64,000 nucleotides of DNA from Octopus vulgaris (taxonomy: Eukaryota): positions 110,484,001 to 110,548,000 of the forward strand of contig OX597817.1 in NCBI GenBank assembly GCA_951406725.2. Direction: 5' to 3'. Positions 11,705 to 52,290 of the stretch are shown piece after piece (the stretch's first letter is position 1; every line of letters starts with the position of its first letter). The position numbers and the translations under genes were made by a program. Below the pieces are notes generated by a model, which worked only from the letters and a program-made list of their open reading frames with translations, was not told the origin of the DNA and made no database searches.

Positions 11705-13055
11705 TTAAAGTTTCCTTCATTCTGTGAAAATATTCTTTACGGAGGACTTCCTGCCTTTCTGTATTTTTGGTTTTATCACTTTCCAATATTCTAAAATATT
11801 TATATGCTTCTTTTATATTTAATGATTTTATTTTTCTCATCATCAGGTAGATCCATTCCAGCATTTTTTATGAATTTTCATTGCTTCATCTAAATCACGA
11901 TACATTGCTTGATTTTGAATGTTATCTTAATGTCAATACTAAATATTCTTATAGCTTGCTCTAAGGGATCCATAAGATTTTTATCTTTGCCATAAGTCTT
12001 CAAATAAACTATAAACAGAGGTGACTCATTTTTCACTTATTCTTTCCCATGAATACTCTCCTTAGCTTTACAGAGTGAAATTGACAAAAAAAATTGATGT
12101 GATTACAAACAAGATAGGAGGGAAGCTGTCCTCTTGGATGATTCCTTTTCTGATCTATGTATCTGCTGATCTTTCCCCTCAATACCTTAACTCTACTCTC
12201 CATTTGTCACATTGCATTTTCTAATACTTAATTATTTGTTTATATCGTTTAAAATAAATTCCTAAATCACCTGTTATTATGAGTACTGCTTGTTTTCAGT
12301 CCCTAAATTCTCATTATTTTTCATTCCTCCTCTCCCACTACTATCAGCATAACTATTATTCCCCACTACGATAATCATCATTGAATTTTGCCAAATTGTC
12401 ATGGATTGCGTGTGTACATTACAGCAAGTCATCAATCTGCTGTCATTTCAATGTTCTGTAATTCTTTATTTTCAGACAAGTTGACTCAGTACTGATTCAA
12501 ATTAGCTCTTTACTCTGATATCTATACCTTGCACAGTTATACGCATCTAAATTGGTTTATTGTCCAAGGTTAGTGACTTTTCTGAACAGCTTTGTCAAGC
12601 TTTTATATCATCACTATCTTTTTATGAATTGCTGTTAGAATATTTATCTTTTTTCAAGGTATCCAGCACCTGATTCTTCTACAATTTTGGAGTAAGATTC
12701 TCTGGAAGATTCTAAATTCAGTGAAGTGTGGAACAAAGGGCAAATACAAAAATGACTTTTAGATCATTTTCACATTAATATTGTAAAATATTTTATGATG
12801 GGTCACAAATTTTGAAATAAAAATGTAAACATAAAATAATTCAAAAATGTTTTGAATGTAAATCTATTCAAATAAATATTTCATTCAGATTCTGAAGGTG
12901 GGGCAAAAATTATTTGATTTTTTTAAAAAAGAGAACAAATCTTGTTTCAACTGGAAACGTTATACTCTTTAGTTGATTATACATTTTCATTTATCCTGAG
13001 AAAAGTCGATAATATGTTTTTTTCTGATAATATATATGTAAACCTACATAGTATA

Positions 13056-13218
13056 GGCGCAGGAGTGGCTGTGTGGTAAGTAGCTTGCTAACCAACCACA
13101 TGGTTCCGGGTTCAGTCCCACTGCGTGGCATCTTGGGCAAGTGTCTTCTGCTATAGCCCCGGGCTGACTAATGCCTTGTGAGTGGATTTGGTAGACGGAA
13201 ACTGAAAGAAGCCTGTCG

Positions 13219-13257
<39 letters not shown>

Positions 13258-13460
13258 TTGTGTGTCTGTGTTTGTCCCCCTAGCATTGCTTGACAACCGA
13301 TGCTGGTGTGTTTACATCCCCGTCACTAAGAGACCAATAGAATAAGTACTGGGCTTACAAAGAATAAGTCCCGGGATCGATTTGCTCGACTAAAGGCGGT
13401 GCTCCAGCATGGCCGCAGTCGAATGACTGAAACAAGTAAAAGAGTAAAAGAGTAAAGAGT
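13056..13460 (+). mobile_element. tRNA-derived SINE family A, young full-length copy
   Basis: Head with A/B-box-like motifs (tggctgtgtgg, ggttcagtccc), cttgggcaagtgtctt core, internal (TA)n(TG)n, tail ccagcatggccgcagtcgaatgactgaaac plus aaaagagt repeats. CpGs retained. Confidence 0.9.
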
Positions 13461-13907
13461 ATATATACATATATAATACTGTACATTAATATACACTTCC
13501 ATTAATATACCCACTGATATATAATACAATACACTTCAATTAATGTACCCACTCTATTAACAGATATACAAGTGCACTTTTTCCTGACTTATGAACTCTT
13601 AGATGGCTCTCTCTCTCTATCTATCTATCTATCTATCTATCTATATATATATATAATAGAAATATTAAAATTACTAAGTCTCTCTAAAAGAGATTACTAA
13701 GTCTCTCTAAAGGAGATTACGGCAGCATTACTGGAAATTAATAGTTATCGCCATACTAATATGGCAGTCTTATAAATATAAGACTAAAGCTGTCGCTGAT
13801 TAGCTCCATGAGGCCATCGCCTTAAGCTAGCTATTTGACACACAAACTGCGTCCATTATAAACCTTCGAACAAGGGAGGTCAGCCGCTTCATCCTGCCAG
13901 TCAGACA

Positions 13908-13948
13908 GCTACAGACGTTTCAGGGTTGTTGCCCCTTATCAATGCAGC
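13908..13948 (-). ncRNA. Minimal type I hammerhead ribozyme (U3-A8 core variant)
   Basis: Minus strand GCUGCA UUGAUAA GGGG caacaa CCCU GAA ACGU C UGUAGC: stem I, core, stem II, palindromic ACGU stem III, GUC cleavage triplet. Confidence 0.8.
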
Positions 13949-14325
13949 GTAGTCAGACTTGCAGGTGTCGCTACTGATCATCCCAGTTTGAAGGCTTTAT
14001 TTAGCTAGTTTCAGTGGAATACATCCACTTGTTTTCAATAATACAAATATTAAAATTACTAAGTCTCTCTAAAGGAGATTACGGCAGTGTTACTGGAAAT
14101 TAATAGTTATCGCCATACTAATTTATATACTTATATTTATAAGACTGCCATATTAGTATGGCGATAACTATTAATTTCCAGTAACGCTGCCGTAATCTCC
14201 TTTAGAGAGACTTAGTAATTTTAATATTTGTATTATTGAAAACAAATGGATGTATTCCACTGAAACTAGGTAAATAAAGCCTTCGAACTGGGATGATCAG
14301 TAGCGACACCTGCAAGTCTGGCTAC

Positions 14326-14366
14326 GCTGCATTGATAAGGGGCAACAACCCTAAAACGTCTGTAGC
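14326..14366 (+). ncRNA. Minimal type I hammerhead ribozyme, second copy (G12A, probably inactive)
   Basis: gctgca ttgataa gggg caacaa ccct aaaacgtc tgtagc; GAAA mutated to AAAA. Confidence 0.7.
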
Positions 14367-14532
14367 TATCTGACTGGCAGGATGAAGTGGCTGACCTCCC
14401 TTGTTCGAAGGTTTATAATGGACGCAGTTTGTGTATCAAATAGCTAGCTTAAGGCGATGGCCTCATGAAGCTAATCAGTGACAGCTTTAGTCTTATATTT
14501 ATAAGACTGCCATATTAGTATGGCGATAACTA

Positions 14533-14582
<50 letters not shown>

Positions 14583-15340
14583 TACATGCATGTATGTATA
14601 TAGTTTATTAATTTAAATTACCACTTGTCTCTCTTCACCTTTACATTCATTTCATCCCCCCTCTCTCTCTCTGTACATATAGTACAAGCTAATGAAGGAA
14701 CCCCATTATAGTTATTAAACAGGCTAAAAATAGCAAACAAATTCCCCTAAACAACATGCTGTTGTTTAGGTCTTATCATTTAAAACTCCCACCTCAAGTC
14801 AGCCCTGATTGAGCAAACCTGTTATTAAAAGCATCATAGCCATGATTATTCCATTTTCCTTTGGAAAGAGAAGCCAAAGCTAGACTTTGTTCTTTTCTGA
14901 GATAGAAGGATGTGACTTGAAGGAGATTAGCTGCTTTTTCTCATATCAAACTATCACATAGCAGATCCCTCATGGGTTTGTCTGATTTGTAGTGCGTAAG
15001 GGCTGATGGCAAATAGTCAACAGAGAAGGAACTATCAGCTGAAATGCTTCCCAATATCCATTTCAGACATACAAAATTTTAAGTTTGGATTTCATCCAAA
15101 TTGATATCCATTCATCTGGGTTATAAGAAGTATTAGCAATTTTCTGAGATTCATTACATTTATTATATTCTCTCATTTACTGAAAAATATTTTGGTTAGG
15201 CAAGGATTAAATTAGGCAAAAAAATATGTTTTTAAATAAACTGACACAATCACTGTATTAAATATGTGGATGTGTTGATAATCTTCTTACTTAATTGAAA
15301 TTGTCTCTGACAGAAACCTGAAAATATAGATTTTAATTAC

Positions 15341-15572
15341 GCGCAATGGCCTAGTGGTTAGGGCAGCGGACTCGCGGTCGCAGGATCGCGGTTTCGATTC
15401 TCAGACCGGGCGTTGTGTGTGTTTATTGAGCGAAAACACCTAAAAGCTCTACGAGGCTCCGGCAGGGGGTGGTGATCCCTGCTGTACTCTTTCACCACAA
15501 TGGCGGTGCCCCAGCATGGCCACAGCTCAAGAGCTGAAACTGGAAAAATAAAAAAAAAATAAATAAAAAAAA
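15341..15572 (+). mobile_element. Young tRNA-derived SINE with A-rich tail
   Basis: A box tggcctagtgg, B-box-like ggtttcgattc, CpG-rich. 3' tail ggcggtgccccagcatggcc..ctgaaac is shared with family A. Confidence 0.85.
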
Positions 15573-15629
15573 AATACTACTTTTCTTATTTCCTTCTTTA
15601 AGTAGTTAAGATCCGTACTTAATATTAAT

Positions 15630-15803
15630 TTTGTCCATGCTGGGCATATGTTCTGAGTACAGATTCTACTGAGGTCAATTTTGCTTTCATTCTTTCGAAG
15701 TCAATAAAATAAGTACTAGTTGAGTACTGAGGTTGTTGTGATTGATTTAACCCTCCTCCCCACTCCGAAATTGCTGGCCTTGTGCCAAAATTTGAAACCA
15801 ATA
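15630..15803 (+). mobile_element. SINE family B
   Basis: gttctgagt...gaggtcaattttgctttc...ggccttgtgccaaaatttgaaacc. Confidence 0.7.
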
Positions 15804-20379: not shown

Positions 20380-21130
20380 TCAATAGGGAGATTATTGAAA
20401 TGTTGGAGCAACGCCATGTTGATGTGTGTGGTGTGCAAGAAGTAAGATGGAGGGGAGTCTCAGCTAGATTCCTCATAGGTGAGAGATGAAGATACAAATT
20501 CTTCTGGGTTGGCATGAGGGATGGAGTGGGTAGTGTAGGCATAATGTTAGCAGAAAATTGGGTAGATAAGGTAATTGAGATGAAACTTATCATAATTAAC
20601 AGTTATAATTGGAGAAGAAATTCCAGGTATGGAAGCAAAACCTGGAATCAAAGGGCTTTAAAGTTAACTTAGCAAAGACCAAAGTTGTTCTTAGTAAGAA
20701 AGAAGATAAAACATTCTTTCCATCACATAAATGGCCCTGCTCAATATGTAGGAAAGGAGTTGGAAGAAATTCCATTCACTATACCCAGTGTAAACTATGG
20801 ACACATAAAAGATATAGTGGAATCACAGGTAGATTAACAGATAAAGTAGTGTTTGTATGTGGCAGATGTGTAGGAACAAAAAGCACTAAGAGCGCACAGG
20901 ACTTAGATTCTCTCAAATGCCCAGGAGGCTCTCTCAAGGTTGTAGATAGTTTCTGTTACCTAGGTGACCAAATTATCAGTAATGGAGGATGCTCTGAAAG
21001 TATTATTTCTAGAATAAGAATAGGGTGGAGGAAATTCAGAGAGCTATTACCTCTGTTGGCAACAAAAGGACTCTCTCTCAGAGTGAAAGGTAGACTATAT
21101 GATGCTGGTGTATGAATGACTATACTCTGT
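20380..21130 (+). pseudogene. RTE-clade LINE remnant: APE endonuclease N-terminus joined to RT C-terminus with a PHD-like Cys/His insert
   Basis: EIIEMLEQRHVDVCGVQEVRWRG..A (APE motif), then LESKGFKVNLAKTK, WPCSICRKGVGRNSI..TQCKLWTHKRYSG..FVCGRC, VDSFCYLG and KGRLYDA. Confidence 0.85.
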
Positions 21131-27252: not shown

Positions 27253-29605
27253 CAGTGGTTCCCAACCATTTTTCAGCCCAGGAACCATTTTTTACTTGAA
27301 AAACTTTCAAGGGACCACTTCTACTTTTACTTTATGCTGTTCTATTTTCACACTAAGATACTTAATGAAAAGACAAAATAGTCTATTTACACTTTAAATT
27401 ATATTTTAGCAAACAAAAGATAAAATTTTAAATGTGTTTTAGTAAACAAATATAAACACAAGATATCAAAATCATTTTTCATAAAGTCGTTCATTTTTAG
27501 TTCATTCAGCTAATGACTAGCTTGATATTGGTGTTTCTGACACAAAATATGATAATCAATTTTAATGAGCTCATTTAGTCTTAGTCTGATAGTTCCTCTG
27601 CTGTTGACATCTAATTTATTTCTTTTTCTACTTAAATTATCTACAACAGCTGAAAATGCAGATTCCACCATCCATGTGGTAGAGAAAGAAATGATGCTTG
27701 CTTCTACATGTCGAAAAATATTTGGGTATGAGTCCTTTATCGATATGTAGGCAAAGACACCTTCTTTTGCAACTCTTCTTCTCAGTTTCATATTCTCTTT
27801 CAAATCTAACAACATTTCAGCCAACTCAAAATTTTCATCTCCTGGCTCATAATTTTCTAGGTCTATCTTTAATAAATCATTGTATCTTCCCTCAAAGTCT
27901 ACATGAAGACCTTCAGGAAGGGCAATGCATTCTGATGTAGGAACTGTGGTGTTAAAATTTTGAAATGATGCCAAAATTTACTTTTTAAACTGTTTTTTTT
28001 CCAAAATTTTAATTTCCCCATATACCCTTTTATCTTCTGAGAACAGGTGACCAAATCTGATTTTCTACCTTGCAGCTCTAAGTTAAGCAGATTCACTGTT
28101 TAAAAAATATCACTCAAGTAGAATATTTTTGATTTAAACTCAGAACGTCTTTCCAAAACAGCTTGCTTCTTGAAGTTGTAGTGAGTCATCTGACTCTTGA
28201 ACACGAGAAAGTTGATTAATGGTTCCCATAAATTCACTAGTCTTTCAAGGCTCAGGCCTATTAACAACCATCTTACTTCTGTGTGAAGCAATAGGGTTTT
28301 TAAATCTTCATCTTCACAGAATTGCATAAAAAAATCTATTATTCCCTGAGTTTGATTTGACAAAGTTAATTGTATAACTGGCAGTGTTGAGCACTTCTTC
28401 AATGTGTTCTCCAATATTCTTAGCAACCTGTCTGTGGATAATGCAATGTATATAAAAAATGTGAGGAGCAACTGATTTCATTCTAGAAACAAAGCCTTTC
28501 ACTTTTCCAGTCATGGCTGCAGCTCCATTTGAAGAAATGTTGATTAAATTAGTCGATGAAATATTTTTATCATTAAAATACTTCAATTAAAATACTTGAA
28601 TATGTCTTCTCCATTAGTAGTTTCAGACAAACTTTTAATGAATAACATTTCTTACCTTATATCATCTTCATGGGTGAATCTGACATAGACCAGAAGGATA
28701 GCTTGGTTATGAATTCTGCTATCATCAATCTTGATAGAAAAATTTGTCTTTTGGAGAACTTCCACAATCTTCTCCCCAACAAAATTAGATATTTCATCCT
28801 ATCTTCTTGTAATTGTGTTATTTGAAAGTGGAATTGTACTCAGAGTAGATGCAGCACCTTTTCCCAGAATCTCATTTGCACAAGCTATCATAGCAGGCTT
28901 GACAAGTTTCTCACCATAAATCTGAGGTGCTGCAACCTTGGCAATAATTTCAGAGACAAAATAACTTAGTTTGAATGTCTTTACTTTTTCAGTCGGGTAG
29001 TTTGATTGGCTGTATTTTTTTTTTTATTCTCAAAATATTCCCTACCTTTACCAACAGATGATGGATGCTTCAATTTCTGGTGCTGTTCTAGCTTAACTTC
29101 CTTCAAGGAATGATTTGTCATGATAGCATCACATTCAAGACACATAAGTTTTGAGTCTACAGATACAAAACCAAACATGCTAAAATCTTCTTTGTAGTTC
29201 CTCAGTTTTACCTTTTTAGCAGTTGGTTCAGACATTATTACAATTGATCTTAAAAAAAATAAAAATAATAAATACTTTATTTCTATAAATTAAAAGTATC
29301 AAATTTATTATTAAACAATATTGTGTAGGGATCTATTAATAATGTCAAATTTATTATGAAACTGTTGTGATTGTAAAATGTAAATTATGTAATTCTTGTT
29401 TGTAATATATTATTGATTATATATTATACATTATTGATTCTTATGGAATAATTATTGAATTTTGTTTTCTTATTATTATTCTGTCTTCATATAAATTATT
29501 ATTAACTAACAGTGTCTTCATTATCAAGCAATTTTATGTAGATCTAAAATGGCTTCTATTTGTTTATGGCTACGAATTCTCTGGGGACCTCGTTGGGAAT
29601 CACTG
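27253..29605 (-). mobile_element. Full-length hAT (Buster/Charlie-type) DNA transposon, 2353 bp
   Basis: TIR cagtggttcccaac / gttgggaatcactg; perfect 8-bp TSD TGTTAAAC at 27245-27252 and 29606-29613; internal transposase. Confidence 0.95.
27510..29235 (-). pseudogene. Frameshifted Buster-type hAT transposase (ZBED5/FAM200-like)
   Basis: BED-finger-like CLEC..H..H, then SSNGAAAMTG, HCIIHRQ, LLLHTEVRWL, LNLELQG and dimerisation-domain FSTTWMVESAFSA, spread over several frames. Confidence 0.9.
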
Positions 29606-50771: not shown

Positions 50772-52290
50772 GTCCTGTGGTGGCAGGCTACGGATAACAG
50801 GGACAGGCCTTGGTGGAACTGGAAGTCTCTAGTGCCTATCCTATACATAGGTGGTGAGCATGTGATGATCGCTCAATCAGAGACCTTGTTGCAACTCCTT
50901 TGGGTGGTAGCTATGTTCACGACTGGGCTGGCCTATTTAGGATTCCTGCTGCCCACCTTGAATGAGGAAGGCCTTGAATGAGGTGGGCTAAACATCAGAT
51001 GTCGCAACTCTACTTGACTGGAAAGCTGCATTCAGCGGGTCACCCATTCTGCAGCCGAAACACTATAATGAACTTTGCTACTTGGAATGTTTGGACACTA
51101 CTAGATCACAAGGACACAAATCGACCTGTCAGAAGAACAGCCCTCATCACACACGAACTGAGCTGTTTCGGTGTGAACTTTGCAGCTCTGAGTGAAACCA
51201 GGTTCTCAGGGGAAGGATCACTTGAAGAACAAGGTTCTGGATATACGATCTTCTGGAAAGGAAAGGAGCCTGGTCAACCTCATATGCATGGTGTGGGTTT
51301 TGCAATCAAGACAAAACTCATATAATCCTTCAGTCTGACTCCGTCTTGCATCATAGAGAGAATCATGTCCATCCGAATTCCTCTCTCAACATCTTTCATC
51401 ACTATCTTTTCCATCTATGCTCCAACACTGGATGCTGAGGACAACATAAAGGAAGAGTTCTACAATCAACTTGACCAACAACTCACAGCTGTCCCCAGTT
51501 CAGACAAAATTCTCCTACTGGGTGACTTCAACGCAAGGGTTGGCAGAGACCATCATCTATGGGAGAAGGTTGTCAGGAAAGATGGAGTCAGGAACTCCAA
51601 TGCAAATGGACATCTTCTTGGACTGTATTCTGAACACAAACTTGCTATCACAAACACCTTCTTAAGGCAGTGGAACTGCTTCAAGACTATATGGCAACAT
51701 CCCAGATCCAAACATTGGCACCTCCTAGAATATGCCATCACAAGACAATGTGATCTCAAAGATGTTCTGATCATTTGTTCTATGCTATCTGCTGATGACT
51801 GTTGGACCGACCACCATCTGGTTGTTACGCAGATAAGATGGACTCTGAAGAAGAAGACATTCCCCCCAAGATCAAATCCACCTCCCCGGAGGAAGTATGA
51901 CACCACTGCCCTCCGAGACCTCCAGAAAGTCTGTCTTTTTCAAGAGTCTGTCAAAAAGAAGTTGAATGAAAACCCCCCATGTGACAGCTCTGAGTAGACT
52001 ACGCTCAAAAACATCATCACCAAATCTGCGAGAGAGAACATGTTTCCAAAAGCGATCTTATGCAGACTGGTTCAACTCAAATAGTCTTGAAATCTCTACC
52101 CTGATTGATGCCAAGCGATCGGCACTCATTGAACATCTGAACAACCCCTCATGTTCCACGAAACTTGCCAGATTCAGGGAAGCCAAGTCACTCTGCCAAA
52201 GAAGGATTCACGAGATCGAGAATCAATGGTAGCAAGCCAAAGATGTCCAACTCCAATCCTTTGCTGACAGCCATGACATGAGGAACTTTT
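50772..52290 (+). mobile_element. RTE (BovB-like) LINE: 5' UTR plus APE endonuclease, lacking RT and 3' end
   Basis: MNFATWNVWTLLD..RPVRRTALI..EL..AALSETR, YAPT, LLGDFNARVG, WQHPRSKHWHLLEY, CWTDHHLV; stops and frameshifts. GC-richer leader from 50772. Confidence 0.9.

Follow-up and report, generated by a model that had tools for sequence, protein, structure and literature searches.

A 362-bp hammerhead-bearing unit inserted head-to-head in a TA-rich microsatellite of Octopus vulgaris is probably a non-autonomous Penelope-like element

Introduction

How did two near-identical copies of a short, hammerhead-bearing unit come to lie head-to-head inside a TA-rich microsatellite of Octopus vulgaris, and to which class of mobile elements does the unit belong? 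The locus lies in a stretch of 64,000 nucleotides, hereafter the window, and was first described in an earlier note made from the letters alone. Penelope-like elements (PLEs) offer an obvious comparison. As described in passages of PMC8557442 and PMC8969392, a PLE insertion consists of a full copy with a truncated one in front of it; a further copy, inverted and 5'-truncated, often lies next to these, the tail is at one end, and there is a bias towards (TA)n targets. Head-to-head PLE junctions carry palindromes, and the account of them given in part of PMC3846280 is self-priming, not two target-primed events. In the work reported in sections of PMC11167929, a PLE protein in purified form nicked both strands of AT-rich DNA and extended them; two internal RNA start sites were found, whose distance equals the tail, and insertion did not need hammerhead cleavage. 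The minimal hammerheads of PLEs are characterized in parts of PMC4209133 by a U3-A8 variant and a loopless, palindromic stem III, are thought to act as dimers, and are also found in twos, on opposite strands and 100-700 bp from each other. How PLEs build tandem and inverted insertions, and what the hammerhead does in the process, are posed as open questions in passages of PMC8557442 and PMC11167929. Our literature search returned nothing on a 362-nt family or on two-ended PLE priming; Repbase, Dfam and several supplements were outside its scope, and the family may be catalogued there.

Results

Anatomy of the inverted insertion

The core of the locus is an inverted repeat of two 386-nt arms (13737-14122 and 14152-14537 of the 64-kb window), which are 97% complementary, separated by 29 nt, and distinguished by 11 substitutions without any indel. 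Ten of the 11 differences are transitions, and 4 of the 11 are at CpG. A 362-nt period is present in both arms, as direct repeats 13693-13760/14055-14122 on the left and 14130-14175/14492-14537 on the right. These values bear out the earlier description of near-identical, head-to-head arms that each exceed one 362-bp unit. The same description gave a palindrome of about 880 bp; the inverted repeat stands, but the symmetry does not, as 801 bp are in perfect register and the arms are unequal, with 467 nt on the left (444 nt without a 23-nt tandem duplication) and 408 nt on the right. The start that had been placed at 13661 moves slightly outward, since the boundary between the left end and the microsatellite is blurred around 13653-13660.

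Positions within the unit were counted from the predicted hammerhead cleavage site. The left arm (13656-14122, minus strand) starts at unit 154, runs once round and ends at unit 235; it comprises one 362-nt unit, a further 82 nt (unit 154-235) and the 23-nt duplication. The right arm (14130-14537, plus strand) starts at unit 132, runs once round and ends at unit 177, and is one unit plus 46 nt (unit 132-177) without a tail. With these two starting points the arms are permuted relative to the cleavage site, as had been proposed. Each arm contains a partial tandem, in which a full copy is preceded by a 5'-truncated copy comprising the extra 46 or 82 nt. A 3' tail of 58 nt (unit 178-235), which together with the duplication occupies 13656-13736 (minus strand), is found on the left arm only, and 22 additional 5' nucleotides on the right arm only; each arm has sequence that the other lacks, and the spacer between them consists of sense-oriented sequence plus filler. 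The filler at the head-to-head junction (14123-14129) is 7 nt long, AT-rich and similar to the adjacent start of the right arm. The 23-nt tandem duplication, near the 3' end at 13670-13720 (minus strand), is absent from other family contigs and probably arose by slippage as reverse transcription began.

Two adjoining perfect palindromes, unit 149-164 and unit 129-148, lie at 13750-13785 (minus strand), the latter being TATA-like on both strands. The 5' ends of both arms (unit 154 and unit 132) fall within this twin-palindrome region. Each 3' end meets a TA-rich microsatellite (13608-13652 and 14536-14602), in agreement with the earlier observation that both 3' ends run into (TA)n. On the left the target is (CT)n(CTAT)n(TA)n at about 13608-13655, where a target-site duplication is indistinguishable, and on the right it is (TA)n at 14536-14602; an AT-rich or (TA)n insertion site is thus seen on both flanks. 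The GC content of the 362-bp unit is 40%. No ORF was found in the element, as already noted from the sequence: the longest stop-free frame is 48 codons and the longest ATG-started frame 26. No third copy of the unit was found in the 64-kb window.

Hammerhead and predicted folding

In order to locate hammerheads, we searched both strands of the 64-kb window with a descriptor of the minimal type I hammerhead with a stem I of at least 4 bp. The sole match was on the left arm; in a control with shuffled units the descriptor was matched by 1 of 3000. This intact minimal type I hammerhead (13908-13948, minus strand, predicted cut after 13914) has a U3:A8 core, a 4-bp stem II, a 6-bp stem I and a loopless palindromic stem III (ACGU). 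In the hammerhead core, G12 is needed for activity. The copy on the right arm (14326-14366, plus strand) carries a G12 to A change at 14353 and is predicted to be inactive, so that the claim of one minimal hammerhead per arm holds for the left arm and fails for the right.

None of the nine Rfam matches with E up to 1 in the range 12500-15700 around the locus was to a hammerhead family, and no hammerhead reached the gathering score in the whole 64-kb window. Support for the ribozyme call therefore comes from the descriptor and from the variation seen among relatives. Rfam microRNA matches were below the gathering score, reflect the central hairpin and the TA repeats, and were set aside. Exact and degenerate hammerhead patterns had no match in metagenome and viral contigs, non-animal collections that carry little weight here. 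Additionally, a 21-codon frame upstream of the hammerhead with a faint likeness to a GIY-YIG C-terminus was judged to be a chance resemblance.

Among the relatives of the hammerhead, a 2-nt insertion that lengthens the stem III palindrome from ACGU to ACAUGU (by eye) was seen in 3, 2 and 1 contigs of three runs, and in addition as loose ends in 15 and 16 contigs. Another variant, represented by two contigs, keeps the core and is altered at the free position 7, in loop 2 and at the first pair of stem II (by eye), where the wobble is replaced by an A-U pair.

The hammerhead sits at the tip of a long imperfect hairpin of 43 pairs (13860-13998, minus strand), which prolongs its stem I. In this hairpin 39 pairs have a pairing probability above 0.9, and its z of -6.4 was equalled in stability by none of 200 shuffles; the 43-pair stem would keep the two cut ends together. 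Taken by itself, the 66-nt hammerhead motif is no more stable than its shuffles (z -1.0). The permuted monomer reached z -5.0 as a linear and z -5.8 as a circular molecule (60 shuffles each), in line with the many local hairpins mentioned in the earlier note. When two hammerheads were co-folded, the active dimer was not the top structure, in a model that represents dimers poorly. Of the 17 variants of the long stem at 13859-13995, taken from 35 of the 40 rows listed in a table with 29 further rows, 8 are unpaired, 4 keep the pairing and 5 break it, and no compensating partner change was present among the listed variant rows.

A second hammerhead-like motif, followed by AATAAA, was noted with low confidence at 14002-14038 (minus strand) and 14236-14272 (plus strand). 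It is broken by one change in each arm, and is damaged further by the family variants at 14009 and 14013, which are common. Because the descriptor is satisfied only with an allele borrowed from the other arm, and because of these common variants, the motif is possibly a relic at most.

Relatives of the unit in public contigs

The left arm plus the junction was compared with the contigs of four sequencing runs (X1, X2, X9 and X11; organism labels A and B). X9 and X11 are guessed to be RNA runs and were used solely as further sequence variants. Matching contigs numbered 2989 and 2210 in the two large runs, as expected of a multi-copy family, and the two small runs gave 51 and 43; the kinds of substitution are alike across all four runs. 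Part of the element is contained in 20 of 24 listed runs (9 studies, 4 coded organism labels), with shares of 0.23-0.50 of 74 sampled words. The summed depth over 13656-14114 was 5,000 to 1,000,000, against 0-75 over the junction-specific end. As summed depth is not a copy number, we say only that the 362-nt family is very abundant. A dip in X1 depth at 13911-13995 was considered as a 5'-truncation gradient or as two-hammerhead excision, and both readings were dropped, since depth in X2, of which the whole was covered, is high over 13928-13961, the X1 depth comes from 76% of that run, and summed depth is no measure of copies.

Short overlapping pieces with approximately 85-100% identity bridge the tail-to-start junction, position 13996 and the cleavage site. 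Since diverged pieces bridge every part of the cycle, the cyclic 362-nt order predates the insertion and is an inherited design. Neither a whole-unit contig nor a tandem dimer was present among the listed contigs. Three of the seven joints listed were between opposite strands, with the direction of the joint unstated. An opposite-strand joint at unit 144/157 was found in two runs and lies within the same twin palindromes (unit 129-164) as the junction of the locus. Among the best 24 of 320 loose-end rows, 5 have 3' ends at unit 229-237, of which 3 run into TA repeats, and two show the 3' end without the 23-nt duplication. In the same best 24 of 320, the loose ends on the upstream side resemble diverged unit and not coding sequence (by eye).

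The family contigs were also used to compare the two arms. The family-majority base is that of the right arm at 14088, 14004 and 13989, whereas the functional G12 is that of the left arm. Both arms have therefore mutated separately. Minority family alleles at 13995, 14013 and 14044 are common to both arms. An argument for deamination from the G-to-A excess of the right arm (5 versus 2 C-to-T) was rejected, the changes being too few.

Several other observations concern variation within the family. Diverged subfamilies are seen as loose ends at 13977 (X2), 13769 (X2 and X9) and 14115 (X11), and in one diverged subfamily a segment of about 20 nt is replaced where the long hairpin has its 5' strand; judged from these differences, several waves of the family are likely. 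A joint 13885-13997 in a single X2 contig skips 111 nt, that is, the whole hammerhead hairpin tip, and in a single X1 contig the joint 13819-13863 leaves out 43 nt; forms that have lost the hammerhead by deletion may exist. One X1 contig, which extends to 14151 and has one additional base after 14125, may represent a similar junction and was left out of the counts.

Sequence context in the window

The 64-kb window has a GC content of 30-42%, is rich in microsatellites and contains SINE-like, LINE and DNA-transposon remnants. No PLE reverse transcriptase (RT) or GIY-YIG domain was detected by Pfam in the 81 of 94 frames of at least 75 aa that were scanned, and the same frames gave no host-gene exon, a search that short exons would escape. 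The locus shows no sign of host function.

A SINE-like repeat at 13055-13460 flanks the element and has 11 further BLAST matches in the window, with 69-91% identity; it may be akin to octopus tRNA-derived SINEs. The 3' part of a second SINE-like element (about 15340-15563) is 74% like 13392-13456. A LINE remnant at 51326-51997 (plus strand) contains a frame that resembles an endonuclease (PF14529 of Pfam, at E 2e-5, which does not reach the curated threshold), and a frame at 20609-21115 (plus strand), taken as another LINE remnant, resembles a LINE C-terminal region by eye and has no Pfam match. Broken frames at 27510-29289 (minus strand) suggest by eye a DNA transposon of the hAT/SPIN type and gave one weak match, to a Spin-doc zinc finger (E 0.007).

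Discussion

The 362-bp unit is probably a full-length non-autonomous PLE, which has no ORF, keeps the cis-acting hammerhead end and would be moved in trans by the RT/GIY-YIG protein of a PLE, and the locus is then one insertion with the standard PLE layout. The non-autonomous, hammerhead-bearing and PLE-related nature of the element, suggested in the earlier note, agrees with the minimal U3:A8 hammerhead and with the layout of the insertion. In the mechanism that we propose, a PLE protein would bind an RNA longer than one unit. A template of this length could be a tandem transcript or a circle, either of which agrees with the data. As may be deduced from parts of PMC11167929, the endonuclease would then cut both strands within the AT-rich microsatellite. 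Judged from the anatomy of the arms, each DNA 3' end would prime synthesis, one from a distal start at unit 235, with a tail, and the other from a proximal start at unit 177, without it. The resulting cDNAs, slightly longer than one unit, would stop in the twin palindromes and be joined head-to-head through the 7-nt filler. After insertion the arms mutated separately, including the loss of G12 on the right.

Two target-primed events are inferred because neither arm is contained in the other. As a comparison of the arm sequences suggests, priming from both ends of a break, as put forward in the earlier note, fits better than a simple fold-back, for which nested arms would be expected; here the 58-nt tail is restricted to the left arm, the 22 additional 5' nucleotides to the right arm, and the spacer is sense-oriented with filler. 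We therefore regard as doubtful the alternative of a single integration, in which self-priming or fold-back at the palindromes would have produced the inverted arm, as modelled in part of PMC3846280, with a subsequent template jump between short direct repeats. This extra template switch is needed because the arms are not nested. Nevertheless, both 5' ends and one further joint, seen in two runs, lie in the twin palindromes, the published PLE inverted junctions described in PMC3846280 are palindromic, and minority alleles are common to both arms, all of which agrees with a fold-back. The arms might alternatively be 5'-truncated ends of an autonomous PLE whose non-coding end has an internal direct repeat spaced at 362 nt. 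Most minimal hammerheads of animal genomes are attributed to truncated PLEs in passages of PMC4209133, and an ORF could join beyond loose ends outside the best 24 of 320. We consider this origin unlikely, as truncation alone does not explain why the 3' end is repeated at the 5' end, the tail-to-start junction recurs in both arms and in diverged relatives, and the upstream loose ends among the best 24 of 320 look, by eye, like diverged unit. An assembly or fold-back sequencing artefact is highly improbable. Long palindromes beside microsatellites are a known trouble spot, assembly problems are mentioned in part of PMC8557442, and no listed run contains more than half of the sampled words; but the arms differ by 11 substitutions (10 transitions, 4 CpG) with no indels, both bear private changes relative to the family majority, their ends differ, filler is present, and other inverted joints occur in independent contigs.

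A possible, tentatively held refinement of the first step of the mechanism concerns the template. The element could be a true circular-RNA retrozyme, for which master tandem arrays elsewhere would be transcribed and cut by dimeric hammerheads, with a 362-nt circle serving as template and the RT stalling after one turn on its own cDNA. A circle would agree with arms that equal the unit plus 46-82 nt and start at different points, with a cyclic order kept in relatives about 15% diverged, and with a 43-pair stem that joins the cut ends and a circular fold at z -5.8. The unit size and its 40% GC are within the retrozyme range, mussel retrozymes being 350-390 bp; circular templates were proposed for PLEs in PMC4209133, and retrozymes are derived from PLE pLTRs in bioRxiv 10.64898/2026.07.22.740005, in the parts of these sources on which we draw. 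On the other hand, a linear tandem transcript gives the same anatomy, no dimer with two intact hammerheads was present among the listed contigs, and the locus is unable to make a circle. Moreover, minimal hammerheads, dimers included, cleave poorly in vitro (part of PMC4209133), and 8 of 9 tested Xenopus dimers were uncleaved (part of bioRxiv 10.64898/2026.07.22.740005). A further proposal, speculative and doubtful, starts from a 362-nt circular RNA that would be very abundant, closed by a long stem and equipped with a minimal hammerhead dependent on dimers. A Penelope-type RT/endonuclease would copy this circle directly, and the locus would be a frozen double-ended integration of two cDNAs that each went once round the circle and stopped.

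Whichever template was used by the non-autonomous PLE that we favour, the locus itself is a dead-end, aged insertion. It cannot release a monomer or a circle, because each strand has one hammerhead, one of the two is broken, and the duplex of a read-through RNA would bury the hammerhead. The long duplex expected in the earlier note is also predicted by folding, with about 387 long-range pairs in the read-through RNA. The label of retrozyme given there is not retained, as the hammerhead is of the minimal PLE type, present once per strand with one broken, and the locus contains no multimer. Nor are its striking features unusual: the inverted copy, the length beyond one unit, the one-sided tail, the (TA)n target and the opposite-strand minimal hammerheads are each published for ordinary PLE insertions in the portions of the literature cited here. 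In the same portions, dual opposite-strand minimal hammerheads, non-autonomous PLEs and a PLE origin of retrozymes are all already published.

The link between retrozymes and PLEs rests, in sections of bioRxiv 10.64898/2026.07.22.740005, on co-occurrence and sequence trees; a short ORF-less unit with a PLE insertion signature gives it mechanistic support. The very many short copies make the family a good natural data set for mapping the starts and stops of reverse transcription. Inverted copies of this kind would also be a source of long double-stranded RNA, provided that they are common and are transcribed. If the circle were the true template, the family would supply the genomic link that is missing between circular-RNA retrozymes and the PLE machinery, and its size would permit a statistical test of a circle template with two-ended priming from arm ends alone.

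Comparison with known systems

Judged by analogy, the unit behaves as a non-autonomous PLE, while its size, GC content and folding are similar to those of a non-LTR retrozyme. With the endonuclease-bearing PLEs (Penelope/Poseidon, Neptune and Nematis) described in parts of PMC3846280, PMC8557442 and PMC8969392, the locus shares the partial tandem, the inverted 5'-truncated head-to-head copy, the tail at one end, the palindromes at the inverted junction, the (TA)n target and the minimal hammerhead; a (TA)n or AT-rich target is a feature of Neptune and Naiad that the locus matches. It differs from these PLEs in its 362-bp unit, against about 3 kb, in the lack of the telomerase-like RT and GIY-YIG ORF of an autonomous PLE, and in that both arms exceed one full unit. 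Two differences count against a PLE layout: the tail has 58 nt instead of the 30-40 nt published, and the duplicated part (46-82 nt; unit 132-177 and unit 154-235) excludes the hammerhead, in contrast to the pLTRs in those descriptions.

The left hammerhead agrees with the minimal hammerheads described in parts of PMC4209133 in its U3-A8 variant, its palindromic positions 15.2/16.2 and the absence of loop 3, which makes a dimer necessary; as at this locus, motifs are also paired there on opposite strands, at distances of a few hundred bases. In contrast to that description, stem II has 4 bp opening with G-U (A-U in a relative), where G10.1-C11.1 following a bulged base is usual, and stem I runs on into the 43-pair hairpin.

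Non-LTR retrozymes, as presented in parts of PMC7229834 and bioRxiv 10.64898/2026.07.22.740005, resemble the unit in being non-coding, in carrying a type I hammerhead, in their size of 150-450 bp, in a GC below 45% and in being highly self-paired; their proposed mobilization by PLE proteins and origin from pLTRs would also fit the unit. The retrozymes of PMC7229834 have a canonical hammerhead with contacts between loop 1 and loop 2, whereas the unit has a minimal U3:A8 hammerhead, a type for which bioRxiv 10.64898/2026.07.22.740005 admits models too; tails and inverted insertions are not discussed in the sections of its main text considered here. Retrozymes further occur as dimers to large multimers with demonstrated circular RNAs, and two consecutive hammerhead-bearing units are expected of them in these sources, whereas the arms of the locus have 1.1-1.2 units and one hammerhead each. 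The non-autonomous PLE MRC1 of Chlamydomonas, described in part of PMC8557442, shares with the unit the formation of pLTRs and head-to-tail copies. MRC1 belongs to the green-algal Chlamys clade and has known autonomous partners with a common 3' end. The unit described here differs from it further in carrying a minimal hammerhead.
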